Source: Candidatus Zambryskiibacteriota bacterium (GTDB lineage Bacteria > Patescibacteriota > Minisyncoccia > Phycocordibacterales > Zambryskibacteraceae). From it: DNA of 52,402 nucleotides. Every line of letters begins with the position of its first letter. Positions within the stretch are counted from its first letter, which is position 1. The notes below the pieces were generated by a model. That model did no database searches. It was not told the origin of the DNA and saw only the letters and a program-made list of their open reading frames with translations. Below are positions 1,914 through 51,457 of the stretch, piece by piece. The translations under genes were made by a program, and so were the position numbers. The stretch covers positions 1 through 52,402 of the forward strand of contig SICR01000001.1 of assembly GCA_009691335.1 (NCBI GenBank). The letters run 5' to 3'.

Positions 1914-3107
1914 CTATTTCAATTTAGAACGGCGGAGAAATGCTGGGACGGCAGACCAGTCATCATCGTTGTCCTCGATTGGAGAGGCAGCTGGAGTGCC
2001 CACAGGCTTTTTGATATCTATATTTTCCCTTAGAGAGCTCACATCCTTCGGAGCGGAAATAGTATTGAATATTCTGCCTTTAGACGGAGCTTCTTCATTG
2101 TTGTTTCCAAAGGTTTGGAATAAGGAAGTGGACTTGGTACCACGGAAGTTGTTATCGGGGAAGTTGCTTGCGATGACGGTAATCCTGATCTCACCTTTTT
2201 TGAGCTTGTCGTCGTGGATGGTACCGAAGATAATCTTGGCATTCGGATCAACTGATTCGGTAATAACTTTGGCGGCCTCCTGTATTTCAAACATAGCCAA
2301 GTCATCACCGCCGGCGATAGAGAAGAGTACGCCCTTGGCGCCGTTGATAGATATTTCCAGAAGTGGGGAAGAGATAGCGGCTTTGGCAGCTTCGGCGGCG
2401 CGGTTCTCTCCTGAAGCGGAGCCTATGCCCATGAGTGCCGCACCTGAGTTCTCTAATACGGAGCGGATGTCGGCGAAGTCAATATTGATAATACCCGGAG
2501 TGGTAATGAGTTCGGAGATACCCTCGACTGCTTCCTTCAAAATGTTATCGCAGATGGCGAAGGCGTTCTTGGCAGTAACATTTTTATCAACGGTCTGAAG
2601 AAGGCGATCATTGGGAATGATGATAAGAGCGTCCACTGATTGTCGGAGTTCTTCGGCCGCTGCTTCTGCAATTCGCATTCTCTGCTGGCCCTCAAAGAAG
2701 AATGGTTTGGTGACGACAGCGACGGTTAGACACCCATTCTCTTTGGCAGTGCGGGCAACTACTGGAGCTGCGCCTGAAGCTGTGCCTCCGCCAAGTCCTC
2801 CTGCGACAAATACCATATCCGCTCCCTTGATGGCTTCCTGAACTTCCTCCTTGGTTTCTTCAACCGCACGCTTGCCAAGCTCTGGGTTCATACCGGTACC
2901 GAGGCCTCTTGTGAGGTTCTTGCCGATGTGGATTTTCTTCTTGGCCAGAGAGTGGTGAAGGTCCTGCGCATCCGTATTTACAGCAATAAACTCAACTCCC
3001 TTGACCTTGGAGTTAATCATATGATTAATGGTATTTTTCCCTGAACCGCCAACCCCGATGACCTTGATACGAGCGAATGATTCTACTTCTGGTTTTATTT
3101 GTGGCAT
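1914..3107 (-). CDS. ftsZ: Cell division GTPase FtsZ
   Basis: GVGGSGKNTINHM and the tubulin signature GGLGGGTASGAAPV; 397 aa. Confidence 0.95.
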   Translation of the reverse strand: MPQIKPEVESFARIKVIGVGGSGKNTINHMINSKVKGVEFIAVNTDAQDLHHSLAKKKIHIGKNLTRGLGTGMNPELGKRAVEETKEEVQEAIKGADMVFVAGGLGGGTASGAAPVVARTAKENGCLTVAVVTKPFFFEGQQRMRIAEAAAEELRQSVDALIIIPNDRLLQTVDKNVTAKNAFAICDNILKEAVEGISELITTPGIINIDFADIRSVLENSGAALMGIGSASGENRAAEAAKAAISSPLLEISINGAKGVLFSIAGGDDLAMFEIQEAAKVITESVDPNAKIIFGTIHDDKLKKGEIRITVIASNFPDNNFRGTKSTSLFQTFGNNNEEAPSKGRIFNTISAPKDVSSLRENIDIKKPVGTPAASPIEDNDDDWSAVPAFLRRSKLK

Positions 3108-39210: not shown

Positions 39211-39295
39211 GCCCGGGTGGCGGAATTGGTATACGCGCACGACTTAAAATCGTGTCCCGTAAGGGATGTGGGTTCGATGCCCACCCCGGGCACCA
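39211..39295 (+). tRNA. tRNA-Leu (anticodon TAA), CCA encoded
   Basis: Acceptor gcccggg/cccgggc, anticodon stem-loop cacga-cttaaaa-tcgtg, long variable arm. Confidence 0.85.
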
Positions 39296-39509
39296 TACAT
39301 AGGAACGGATCTGATTCCGGCAGGTTGGACTTGGCTTGTCTTAGATAAAACCAAGGATTTTGCGGGGCCCCGCGCGCTTCGCGCGAGTGGAGGGTGAGGT
39401 TCATAAAATTCAAAGCCAAAGATTTTCTGGAGGGTAGATTTTAAATACAAGGGTTCGGGGAGGTCGTGCTTTCTAGTATGTGCTTGCCCCACCCACCCGT
39501 GCGCGCACA

Positions 39510-39552
39510 AATCCCCGCCGTTTTTAGGAGATATTATAAAACGGCGGGGATT
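39510..39552. terminator. 15-bp inverted repeat (GC core ccccgccg/cggcgggg), terminator-like
   Basis: aatccccgccgtttt pairs with aaaacggcggggatt across a 13-nt loop. Confidence 0.45.
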
Positions 39553-39614
39553 GCTCCCTTATACCCTGAAAAGTCCTTATAATAAGCCCTAATTTTAGAG
39601 AACACTCATTTTGC

Positions 39615-39643
39615 TTGACAGAACTATATAGATATGCTATACT
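39615..39643 (+). promoter_or_regulatory. Near-consensus sigma-70 promoter TTGACA-17-TATACT
   Basis: TTGACA at 39615-39620 and TATACT at 39638-39643 with a 17-nt spacer, about 100 nt upstream of the first cassette ORF. Confidence 0.6.
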
Positions 39644-39650
39644 TATAACA

Positions 39651-39746
39651 GAATTCCTATTCGTATGGATAGGTCGTTCCGAAAGGAATAAGGGCGTTCG
39701 GTTCCTGCGCCAATCAGGAAGCCCGTTCATTACAAGGAGAAGTCGT
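39651..39746 (+). promoter_or_regulatory. Structured 5' leader, copy A (three hairpins plus an SD/AUG hairpin)
   Basis: P1 cctat/atagg, P2 ccgaa/ttcgg, P3 ttcctg/caggaa, and gaagtc-gtat-gacttc spanning the SD end and the AUG. Homologous to 40014-40109. Confidence 0.5.
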
Positions 39747-39929
39747 ATGACTTCCAATGACAATGTGATGCTTCGCACGGCTCAAGATGTCGAGGACCAA
39801 GCACAAAATCTCTCACGTGAGGCCATTCGCCTCCGAGAGATGGCGGACGGTATGATCTCACAAGCCACTCGCCTCCGGCAATATGCTGAGGATTTGCGCA
39901 GGCAACACTCACGTCTACGTCGTGATTAA
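39747..39929 (+). CDS. Hypothetical 60-aa charged helical protein (high-GC cassette gene A)
   Basis: AAGGAG lies 7 nt upstream of the ATG. The frame is GC3-rich and a hairpin follows the stop. I recognise no family. Confidence 0.55.
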   Translation: MTSNDNVMLRTAQDVEDQAQNLSREAIRLREMADGMISQATRLRQYAEDLRRQHSRLRRD

Positions 39930-39937
39930 CAAGTTCT

Positions 39938-39962
39938 AAGGGCGAGTTGTCTACTCGCCCTT
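39938..39962 (+). terminator. 10-bp hairpin downstream of gene A
   Basis: aagggcgagt-tgtct-actcgccctt. The U-tract is weak, so it may be a partial terminator. Confidence 0.5.
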
Positions 39963-40013
39963 CCCTCAAAGGTTTTCTCTAGTAGGAAACTTTCGAGGGA
40001 ACAACGAGTTCCC

Positions 40014-40109
40014 GCAATTCCTTCTCGTATGGGAAGGTGGCTCGCAAGGGCAACGAGGTTCTGTTTCCTACCTCGCCCAAGGGAAATGTTCATTACAAGG
40101 AGAAGTCGT
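40014..40109 (+). promoter_or_regulatory. Structured 5' leader, copy B
   Basis: P1 ccttc/gaagg, P2 ctcg/cgag, P3 tttcct/gggaaa, and the same SD/AUG hairpin as copy A. Confidence 0.5.
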
Positions 40110-40562
40110 ATGACTTCCAATGACAATCTGTCGTTCAATGCAATCGGTGGTCCGAGCAAGTTCGATCTGATGCTCTCGCTCTTCGATGGGAACAAAGAAC
40201 CCCGTCGGACGGTCGAGTTCCAGCTCGAGGGTGCGCGTCGTCCGATCACCGTCGGCATCACGATGGTCCAGCAAGAAGATGGTTCTGGCGAAAGCTGGAA
40301 CTTCCGGGGCTGGGTCAGTGGCGATGATCCCACGGACTCCATGTTCGCCCTCAACCTCCATGTCGACGGGTACTTCTCGACGAGGGGTCGAAAGGGATAC
40401 ATCACGTTCGAAGTACCGTTCCACTACGAGATGAGAGCGGGTGAGCGCCACAAGGTGATCTTGCCTGCCAACCAACTCGCAACCGAGCAGTACGTCGAAC
40501 GTCTGCGTGGAAATCTGGGTAGCGACTTGATGGACCTTATCAAGGACGCTCGAAAGATGTAG
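40110..40562 (+). CDS. Hypothetical 150-aa protein (high-GC cassette gene B)
   Basis: Same SD and same first six codons (MTSNDN) as gene A. Strong GC3 bias, followed by a canonical terminator. I recognise no family. Confidence 0.6.
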   Translation: MTSNDNLSFNAIGGPSKFDLMLSLFDGNKEPRRTVEFQLEGARRPITVGITMVQQEDGSGESWNFRGWVSGDDPTDSMFALNLHVDGYFSTRGRKGYITFEVPFHYEMRAGERHKVILPANQLATEQYVERLRGNLGSDLMDLIKDARKM

Positions 40563-40608
40563 TTCTTGAAGAGTTGAAGTAGAGTTCCCAGTCTCATGAT
40601 ACTGGAGC

Positions 40609-40643
40609 GGCGCATTTCCTTCGGGAGTGCGCCTTTTCGTTTT
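40609..40643 (+). terminator. Rho-independent terminator of the cassette
   Basis: ggcgca...tgcgcc stem with a ttcg-containing loop, followed by ttttcgtttt. Confidence 0.75.
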
Positions 40644-40868
40644 AAAATTTCCTCGCCCCATCGCTCATACCTCTCAAAAAAGTCTAACCCCCGCCAACTC
40701 TAAAAAGAATGAAAGCGATGGGGCTTCGGCTAAAGCGGGCACATTAGTGGAGCGTAGGTGGAGGTCTAAAGCTAGCAGGCGCGCGGAGCGTGCACCTTAA
40801 CCCTTCGGGCAAGAATCAGGAATTTCTGATAAAGTAAGTTCGAACGAGGTCGTACAGACCCACAGTTT

Positions 40869-40939
40869 GCGGCCATAGTTCAGTGGCAGAATGAGTGCTT
40901 CCCAAGCATTAGACGGGGTTTCGATTACCCCTGGCCGCA
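40869..40939 (+). tRNA. tRNA-Gly (anticodon CCC)
   Basis: Acceptor gcggcca/tggccgc, anticodon loop ttcccaa, T-arm ggggt-ttcgatt-acccc. It is close to the E. coli glyU sequence as I remember it. Confidence 0.85.
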
Positions 40940-40958
40940 CTTGATGTATAATAAATAT

Positions 40959-51307: not shown

Positions 51308-51457
51308 TATCTAAATAGTGGAATGACCTAAACCTTTGGCAACAGGGGCATGGTCAAAGTCCTACAAAGCAAAAAACTCCTCGTGAGGAATGCTTTGTAG
51401 GCCCTGCCGGGAAACTGGCAGTGGGTGGCAGAGCCACCACCTTGCGAGGAGCTTTTT
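51308..51457 (+). promoter_or_regulatory. Candidate structured leader with competing helices and a U-tract
   Basis: An 11-bp helix (51361-71 with 51391-401) competes with a 12-bp helix (51377-88 with 51440-51). Two small hairpins lie between them, and TTTTT is at 51453-57. Confidence 0.35.

Follow-up and report, generated by a model that had tools for sequence, protein, structure and literature searches.

A structured mRNA leader with two identical hairpin loops in Patescibacteria: a candidate translational operator

Two copies of a structured mRNA leader, A and B, were found in a 52,402-nt stretch of DNA from Candidatus Zambryskiibacteriota bacterium (assembly GCA_009691335.1, contig SICR01000001.1, positions 1 to 52,402; hereafter the window), where they precede the open reading frames (ORFs) A and B, respectively. 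ORF B (gene B) belongs to one small protein family of Patescibacteria which always carries this leader, so that leader and family gene form one unit, to which leader A, followed by the orphan ORF A, is the exception. A hairpin near the 5' end of the leader (P1) and a hairpin around the start codon present the same loop. It is practically certain that the element is a functional structured mRNA leader, and probable that it controls initiation through the AUG hairpin. The leader behaves like a translational operator and was placed in none of the named families considered. Its reader may be its own encoded protein, a proposal which we hold with even or slightly lower confidence.

Architecture and covariation of the leader

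The architecture was derived from a MAFFT alignment of 66 non-redundant leaders, made from sequence only and with no structure information. A second, model-based alignment contained 96 sequences (covariance model R1, built without the stem S1). The covariation and loop statistics are not corrected for phylogeny. The 5' half of the 66-leader alignment consists of AAUUCC, P1 with 7 bp and the loop C-GUAU-G, a single U, and the hairpin P2, which is of variable length, is closed by C:G or G:C and has an invariant AA bulge. The middle section runs through the 5' strand of S1 (GGAGG-like), L1, the 5' strand of S2, the 3' strand of S1 (CCUC-like), L3 and the 3' strand of S2. The 3' end is formed by UGUUCNUU, the Shine-Dalgarno sequence (SD) and the start hairpin NNC-GUAU-GNN. 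The GUUC box and the SD are single-stranded in the consensus, and the invariant unpaired nucleotides are the AAUU tail, the AA bulge, the CA of L3 and the GUUC box. The length from AAUUCC to AUG was 82–124 nt with a median of 96 nt (96-leader set).

In the 66-leader alignment standard pairs occupied 86.6% of the cells, compared with 66.7% in shuffles (0/500 reached the observed value), and pairing fell to 38–48% of the cells when the partner column was slid. Both sides changed in 29 of the 30 pairs and covariation was detected in all six helices. The pairing level of the 96-sequence alignment was 90.3%; S1, which is not modelled in R1, still paired in 92% of the cells there, with all four pairs covarying. 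The middle section is an H-type pseudoknot: S1 paired in 92–95% of the cells with changes on both sides in 4/4 pairs, and S2 in 76–86% with such changes in 7/7 pairs. The P2 stem, GUUCC/GGAAU, paired in 90–95% of the cells. All of the 19 highest column pairs in a mutual-information scan with average product correction were pairs of the model, and RNAalifold independently recovered P1, P2, S1 and the start hairpin.

The initial annotation, made from the window alone, had described a transcribed structured 5' leader, which is confirmed by the covariation and by the promoter spacing given below. Its third stem corresponds to S2, which covaries in the family. Its second stem (ccgaa/ttcgg) has to be replaced by the P2 given above, as it paired in 57% of the cells versus 51.5% in shuffles (66 leaders). 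A contact between two loops had also been suggested. The tetramers GGCG/CGCC proposed for copy A do pair, being S1 of the pseudoknot, but the topology is that of an H-type pseudoknot stem and not of a loop-loop contact; the tetramers GGGC/GCCC proposed for copy B did not hold, the conserved stem there being GAGG/CCUC.

The hairpin around the SD and AUG, also recognized in the initial annotation, is a conserved and covarying part of the element. Its stem occurs in the family as GUC/GAC, GCC/GGC, CUC/GAG, ACC/GGU, UCC/GGA and GAC/GUC, and codon 2 is constrained by this RNA pairing, covarying with positions -5 and -4. The median stability of the start hairpin was -6.8 kcal/mol. The 5' AAUUCCU was considered as an anti-SD and rejected; the pairing is possible, but there was no covariation with the SD region. 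About 15 leaders are without the pseudoknot and still have P1, P2 and the start hairpin.

In-frame stops were found in 74 of the 96 leaders and the leader lengths were evenly spread over the three residues modulo 3. The leader is non-coding, since these stops are present and the lengths are not multiples of three, and its interpretation as an N-terminal coding extension (an NCBI call of 104 amino acids in the window, and the homologues P0005, P0018 and P0032) was rejected on the same grounds. Over-extended gene calls of homologues with leader-like sequence were the first sign that the leader is conserved. Public calls of this kind which translate the leader are P0005, P0018, P0032 and P0198, and in the NCBI record EXS69_00230 ORF A is called as 104 amino acids from a TTG at 39615.

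A -10 box (at least 5/6 matches) was detected in 64 of 95 leaders and ended 4–8 nt before AAUUCC in 38 of these 64; a perfect TTGACA was present in 33 of all 64. Transcription therefore begins at the motif and is driven by strong promoters. The element thus shows covariation, lies on the sense strand and is placed between promoter and start codon, as is the case with structured cis-regulatory leaders.

Distribution and gene association

The survey covered 160 loci of family members, half of them metagenomic and half from GTDB genomes (80 each), which are designated here by L numbers. Nearly all of them are from Patescibacteria (Saccharibacteria, Paceibacteria/Parcubacteria, Uhrbacteria, Peregrinibacteria, Berkelbacteria and others). 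A hidden Markov model (HMM) built from the two window copies only matched about 100 loci with nhmmer, all on the + strand and ending at the gene start, and a second iteration matched about 125. With covariance model R1, 75 and 62 matches (E<=0.1) were obtained in the two sets of 80 loci, directly upstream of the family gene on the + strand; an alternative tally gave R1-type leaders at 133/160 loci. The remaining family loci have variant leaders with the same twin hairpins. The homologue search, which had been named in the initial annotation as the test of the element, thus yielded many further copies with strong covariation.

Across the window R1 matched copies A and B only, and everything else scored at most 9 bits. 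In about 1 Mb of flanking DNA no R1 match was found before other genes except for a partial copy in L061. The family gene stands alone, with no conserved neighbours. At one locus, L141 (3767–4968, on a GC-rich Uhrbacteria contig), the leader precedes a multidomain protein of 367 amino acids in which the family domain is internal.

Among the 4227 models of Rfam 15, only tRNAs and LOOT were matched in the window at the gathering threshold. Between 39296 and 40868 the only matches at E<=10 were MIR477 (20.5 bits versus 65) and Fibro-purF (16.9 versus 60), and twelve other leaders gave no match at the leader coordinates at E<=1. Neither window copy matches an Rfam family, in line with the initial annotation, which had recognized no known class. 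The literature searched gave no description of the motif or of the family protein, and going by these two sources the leader motif is apparently undescribed.

A phage origin was rejected. The protein scan of viral contigs gave no relative, and nine matches to the P1 pattern were obtained there, of which seven had no covariance-model match and the other two were weak, one of them lying inside a phage tail gene. A link to tRNA genes was also discarded: a tRNA gene lay within about 500 nt in about 9–10 of 60 loci, with mixed identities and an enrichment of at best about two-fold.

Identity of the two hairpin loops

Loop position 3 of P1 and of the start hairpin was compared in the main class of leaders. 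The combinations were UU in 74 cases, GG in 5, CC in 1, GU in 7, UG in 1 and UA in 4 (Fisher p = 9e-5). Instead of being one another's nearest relatives, the five GG cases are scattered among UU relatives. The loop of P1 and that of the start codon vary in step and stay identical, as GUAU, GGAU, GCAU, GUUAU or UUGAU.

Loops of 5 nt, GUUAU in both hairpins, were found at no fewer than 13 loci with several different middle architectures. GUUAU-class loci with different middle sections that were missed by the model are L058, L109, L124, L125, L137, L143, L148, L150, L154 and L158-160; L114 and L123 belong to the main class and also have GUUAU in both hairpins. Both loops are UUGAU in L157 and UUUAU in L097. 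Several leaders of the variant class (L058, L097, L109, L124, L125, L137, L143, L148, L150, L154, L157-L160) are without an obvious SD.

The loops keep identity and not complementarity, which argues against pairing between them and for one common reader with drifting specificity. A kissing interaction or duplex between the two quasi-self-complementary CGUAUG segments was accordingly rejected, as the changes preserve identity and the A of AUG is never compensated in P1.

The encoded proteins

Gene B had 72 homologues in a clustered database, and at least 570 cluster representatives were found at E<=1e-3. Both genes of the window had been taken for orphans, which therefore does not apply to gene B. 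The family shares the motifs GPSKFDLM...RRTV...EDGSGESW and has a typical length of about 95 amino acids. The two AlphaFold2 models of the family protein had a pLDDT (predicted local distance difference test) of 85 and 88, respectively. The best Foldseek match was CBF-beta with E of about 0.05–0.1 and a template modelling score of 0.3–0.5, which is not significant. The family protein had no relative in Pfam, in NCBIfam or in a profile search against the PDB. Its median isoelectric point of 7.9 is uninformative on RNA binding. A defence system or toxin-antitoxin function was rejected, PADLOC and PHROGs being blank.

ORF A is an orphan, as had been annotated: among 5.8 billion proteins it matched only itself, and it gave no match in Pfam, PHROGs, PADLOC or NCBIfam. 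The observation that ORFs A and B (beginning at 39747 and 40110) share MTSNDN and nothing else was reproduced. Gene A is not a decayed paralogue of gene B, as no frame of 39296–40868 outside gene B matched the family HMM and a tblastn search of gene A against all loci was blank. ORF A contains a 14-nt direct repeat, GCCATTCGCCTCCG (39822–39835) and GCCACTCGCCTCCG (39864–39877), 42 nt apart, encoding the heptad-like segments AIRLRE and ATRLRQ.

Proposed mechanism and alternatives

In the mechanism proposed here, the start hairpin, with its median of about -7 kcal/mol, would limit initiation. A bivalent trans-acting reader would bind the two identical loops of P1 and of the start hairpin and lock the AUG away. 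This reader would most likely be the encoded family protein in dimeric form, so that the gene would be subject to negative autoregulation; the encoded protein is favoured because it is the only component always inherited with the leader. The pseudoknot and P2 would serve as a scaffold positioning the two hairpins, and they may have an additional, independent function. The motif, structure, gene association, promoter position and loop identity were observed, whereas the repression of translation and the choice of reader are inferred.

Two properties expected of an autoregulatory operator were found. The leader is specific to the family gene, with leader A and the partial L061 copy as exceptions, and it overlaps the start codon, the AUG lying in the loop and the closing pair and the last SD base in the stem. 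A more specific form of the proposal, plausible although we lean slightly against it, is an autoregulatory pair of RNA and protein restricted to Patescibacteria: a dimeric protein with a new, small and beta-rich fold would recognize tetraloops of the GNAU type, the 5' loop would mimic the start-codon loop, loop and protein would co-evolve (GUAU, GGAU, GUUAU), and the operator would be portable, having been captured by an orphan ORF.

Several observations weigh against autoregulation by the encoded protein. The loop identity has exceptions, namely the seven GU and four UA cases and L001 (GUUAU/GUAU), and the loop statistics are those without phylogenetic correction. The basic xPRR loop after helix 1 is deleted in 12 of the 14 GUUAU-class proteins, and its loss tracking the GUUAU class is suggestive but confounded by relatedness. 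Foldseek of both models against the PDB gave no match below E = 0.05, and no RNA-binding protein is related to the predicted fold. A simple two-hairpin operator would require neither the pseudoknot nor the GUUC box, yet the conservation of both is strong. Finally, L061 carries at 1066–1178 a partial paralogous copy limited to pseudoknot, GUUC box and SD, which precedes an unrelated ORF of 74 amino acids (1164–1388). This copy shares about 85% identity with the corresponding part of the main leader of L061 and has its own TTGACA-17-TATAAT promoter. At least one module, the pseudoknot, may therefore act on its own, and together with the conservation of the pseudoknot and the GUUC box this makes a riboswitch or a modular leader (pseudoknot and twin-hairpin modules) possible.

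As a riboswitch, P1, P2 and the pseudoknot would form an aptamer for a small molecule or ion, and the ligand would alter the stability or accessibility of the start hairpin. The highly structured and covarying core with its H-type pseudoknot and invariant unpaired nucleotides would suit such a function, as would the position at the extreme 5' end of the mRNA and an SD/AUG hairpin plausible as the expression platform; the pseudoknot-only copy before a different gene in L061 and leader A before a non-family ORF point in the same direction. However, the pseudoknot is missing in the leaders mentioned above and replaced by other structures in the GUUAU class, whereas the twin hairpins are always kept, and a ligand would not explain why the P1 loop tracks the start-codon loop. 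The leader is also tied to one protein family with no conserved neighbours and not to a metabolic or transport pathway, so that no metabolite or ion common to the genes was found. We consider the riboswitch unlikely.

Control by another cellular factor, or by none, is comparably improbable. The factor could be an RNase or an RNA-binding protein of general function, or it could be the initiation machinery, which would recognize the AUG presented in the hairpin while P1 acted as a decoy; otherwise the leader would be a stabilizing or temperature-sensitive structure, with a 5' hairpin protecting the mRNA from decay and an AUG hairpin which melts. P1 begins 4–5 nt from the predicted 5' end, similarly to protective 5' hairpins, the start hairpin is as modest as those of RNA thermometers, AUG-like triplets are present in both loops, and very strong promoters fit post-transcriptional control of an abundant mRNA. 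On the other hand, thermometers and stabilizers need neither conserved loop sequences nor a pseudoknot. The hairpin strength is compatible with an RNA thermometer, but the loop is conserved and duplicated in P1, and a covarying pseudoknot lies upstream. If the reader were universal, like the ribosome or initiator tRNA, the joint drift to GGAU, GUUAU and UUGAU would not be permitted, and a general factor would be expected to act before other genes, of which the flanking DNA gave only the partial L061 copy.

The leader does not resemble type III toxin-antitoxin systems (ToxIN-like), as a single full leader precedes each gene at all loci save the window, the SD and AUG of the gene itself are part of the RNA, no terminator separates the leader from the gene, and PADLOC is blank. 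Nor does it resemble a transcription attenuator, with no terminator hairpin followed by a U-tract within the leader.

The two leader copies of the window

The coordinates of the leaders and of the surrounding features are presented in Table 1. Single-sequence folding gave the 7-bp P1 and its GUAU loop for each copy, two of its pairs being compensatory between the copies, and the 6-bp hairpin GAAGUC-GUAU-GACUUC around the AUG also folded in both, in agreement with the hairpins first noticed in the window. The minimum free energy fold of leader A contained P1, P2, S2 and the start hairpin. In the start hairpin of copy A the A and U of AUG are in the loop, its G is in the closing pair, and the last G of the SD is in the stem. 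The P1 pattern AATTCCTNNTCGTATGGNNAGGT was found only at 39652–39674 and 40016–40038.

Table 1. Features of the leader locus in the window. Positions are those of the whole stretch; CM, covariance model.
Feature	Position	Strand	Details
tRNA-Leu(taa)	39211-39295		flank on one side of the leader locus
Promoter	39615-39643	+	sigma-70-type, TTGACA-17-TATACT, extended TG, 11/12 matches
Leader A	39652-39746	+	full motif architecture, L002/L004 subtype, CM R1 101.4 bits
Leader A, P1	39656-39662/39667-39673		loop GUAU 39663-39666
Leader A, P2	39675-39680/39685-39692		AA bulge 39690-39691
Leader A, pseudoknot	S1 39693-39696/39708-39711; S2 39702-39707/39715-39720
Leader A, GUUC box	39725-39728
Leader A, SD	39734-39739		AAGGAG
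Start-codon hairpin, copy A	39739-39754	+	GAAGUC-GUAU-GACUUC; AUG 39747-39749
ORF A	39747-39929	+	60 amino acids, predicted coiled coil, isoelectric point 8.5, codons 1-6 as in ORF B
Inter-cistron hairpins	39939-39961 and 39962-40000	+	two adjacent stable hairpins between the cistrons, fold -36.2 kcal/mol, z = -5.0
Leader B	40016-40109	+	L001/L081 subtype, CM R1 92.7 bits
Leader B, P1	40020-40026/40031-40037		loop GUAU 40027-40030
Leader B, P2	40039-40043/40048-40054
Leader B, pseudoknot	S1 40055-40058/40071-40074; S2 40064-40069/40080-40085
Leader B, GUUC box	40088-40091
Leader B, SD	40097-40102
Start-codon hairpin, copy B	40102-40117	+	sequence identical to copy A; AUG 40110-40112
Exact 40-mer	39725-39764 and 40088-40127	+	GTTCATTACAAGGAGAAGTCGTATGACTTCCAATGACAAT; spans GUUC box, SD, start hairpin and codons 1-6
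ORF B (gene B)	40110-40562	+	150 amino acids, Patescibacteria family, core of ~95 amino acids and C-terminal helical extension
Terminator	40609-40633 or 40609-40643	+	intrinsic, 11-bp stem then T-run; closes the A-B transcription unit
tRNA-Gly(ccc)	40869-40940		flank on the other side of the leader locus

The exact 40-mer reported in the initial annotation was verified: it occurs exactly twice in the window and was produced by no shuffle. Its identity had been ascribed to selection on the RNA, and the two leaders had been regarded as duplicates aligning over their full length; neither proposal was supported. Over the 3' stretch including the 40-mer, the identity of leader B with its orthologues L081 and L001 is just 65%, and its 5' part is 88% identical to L081 and 81% to L001. 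The 5' part of leader A is 73% identical to L004 and 70% to L002. Between leaders A and B the 5' parts are 57% identical, and in the 3' part 37/37 aligned positions match. In L001, L161 and L081, the closest relatives, the promoter directly before the only leader, which is of B type, is homologous to the promoter region of the window. Two full leaders were found in this window alone among 161 sources.

The identity of the 40-mer is, as these comparisons indicate, a recent gene-conversion tract or recombination junction, and the A/B locus would be a mosaic; the event is considered recent because identity is 40/40 within one genome and yet only 65% with the orthologues over the same stretch. That the two leaders are one duplicated unit, in which purifying selection on the RNA holds the 40-mer with its 18 coding nucleotides identical, is very unlikely: the SD and start hairpin are indeed under RNA-level constraint across the family, codon 2 included, but the orthologous leaders differ from B at about 35% of the positions of the 40-mer region although the 5' part of B is 81–88% conserved, the 5' parts of A and B are of different subtypes, the promoter before A is orthologous to the one directly before the B-type leader in L001 and L161, and the whole pattern is that of a mosaic with a recent conversion tract or junction and not of a unit conserved by selection.

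Transcription unit and surroundings

The promoter anticipated in the initial annotation near the start of the leader homology was found, ending 8 nt 5' of the AAUUCC of leader A. It is the sole promoter-like site on the + strand between the flanking tRNA genes, and transcription is predicted to start at about 39650–39652. No promoter of its own was detected upstream of leader B. Neither inter-cistron hairpin (39939–40000) has a U-tract and the terminator scan was blank there, and these hairpins could be a processing site or an element of RNA stability rather than a terminator. Neither leader contains a terminator; the only terminator-like site in 39296–40868 follows gene B and is conserved in L001, L002 and L004.

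A and B are probably co-transcribed as one bicistronic mRNA, because one promoter and one terminator were found on this strand between the tRNA genes, leader B is promoterless and the inter-cistron hairpins are without a U-tract. From the single promoter the predicted unit would run through leader A, orphan ORF A, the two hairpins, leader B, gene B and the terminator. As leader A precedes ORF A in this unit, ORF A would be placed under the same control.

At 39510–39552 the sequences AATCCCCGCCGTTTT/AAAACGGCGGGGATT form a perfect inverted repeat of 15 bp around a 13-nt loop, which resembles a bidirectional terminator between the tRNA cluster and the promoter of leader A. Directly 3' of tRNA-Leu(taa) lies a conserved element of about 90 nt, GATTTTGCGGGG..CCGCGCGCTTCGCGCGAGTGGAGGGTGAGGTTC...GATTTTCTGGAGG, at 39347–39442 (+). 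It was detected also at 2607–2692 (-) of L001 and in L161, L162, L164 and L166. In the closest relatives the element is directly 3' of tRNA-Ser(gct) and adjoins the family gene, an ORF of 93 amino acids and a large serine recombinase. Possible identities of the element are an island boundary, an att remnant and a small RNA. The G+C content of the A-B unit (39700–40700) was 50–61% compared with about 38–45% in the flanking genes. The A-B unit may be horizontally acquired, because its G+C content differs and close relatives adjoin the serine recombinase. The more distant member L172 nevertheless has a similar RNase HII-NusB-RNase III-SMC neighbourhood. Elsewhere in the window a LOOT RNA (RF03000) was detected at 51325–51438 (+) with 69.7 bits, well above the gathering score, in keeping with the origin of the DNA from Patescibacteria.

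Significance and comparison with known systems

Patescibacteria (Candidate Phyla Radiation) make up a large and mostly uncultivated share of bacterial diversity and have tiny genomes. The leader offers an entry point into their regulation, as a regulatory RNA which is well supported, occurs more than 130 times in the loci surveyed and is transcribed from near-consensus promoters. Almost nothing is reported to be known of how Patescibacteria regulate any process, and their life cycle is suspected to hinge on translational control (PMC11665869). The alignment and the covariance model could be used to annotate Patescibacteria genomes and to correct gene calls which translate the leader, and the covariation in twin-loop identity provides a testable hypothesis. 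If the leader is an operator or a riboswitch, it could become a tool for expression control in Patescibacteria, where such tools are lacking.

The features of the systems compared below are established knowledge. Compact H-type pseudoknots in 5' untranslated regions are shared with the pseudoknot riboswitches (preQ1-II/III, SAM-II/V, fluoride, guanidine-III), which control translation. Their SD, however, lies within or next to the pseudoknot, and the associated genes indicate the ligand; the twin identical loops have no counterpart there, and the leader gave no Rfam match at E<=10 with any of them. H-type pseudoknots are also present in the leaders of S15 (rpsO), L20, the S4 alpha operon and T4 gene 32, where the pseudoknot is bound by the gene's own product and control is exerted at initiation. 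In contrast to those leaders, whose pseudoknot includes or abuts the SD/AUG, the pseudoknot described here is 25–30 nt upstream of the SD and dispensable in some lineages, and the family protein is no known ribosomal or nucleic-acid-binding protein.

The operators of the MS2, Q-beta and PP7 coat proteins likewise have a short hairpin which holds the start codon of the regulated gene, and a protein dimer binding the operator hairpin represses translation. These operators are from phages, with a single hairpin and a regulator encoded by a different gene, whereas the leader has two identical loops and is chromosomal in Patescibacteria; the scan of viral contigs for the leader gave chance matches only.

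The operator of E. coli thrS has two hairpins with the same recognition loop in the 5' leader beside the SD/AUG. The homodimeric gene product, threonyl-tRNA synthetase, binds both hairpins and competes with the ribosome. The thrS hairpins differ in that they mimic the anticodon arm of tRNA-Thr, the AUG is outside the hairpin loop and there is no pseudoknot; there is also no sequence or Rfam relationship with the Patescibacteria leader, for which RNA binding by the family protein is a proposal. Finally, in CsrA/RsmA leaders a dimeric regulator bridges two loop-presented copies of a motif, one of which overlaps the ribosome-binding site. The motif bridged there is GGA, and the regulator acts globally on many targets, whereas the Patescibacteria leader presents a GNAU loop with the AUG and serves one gene family.

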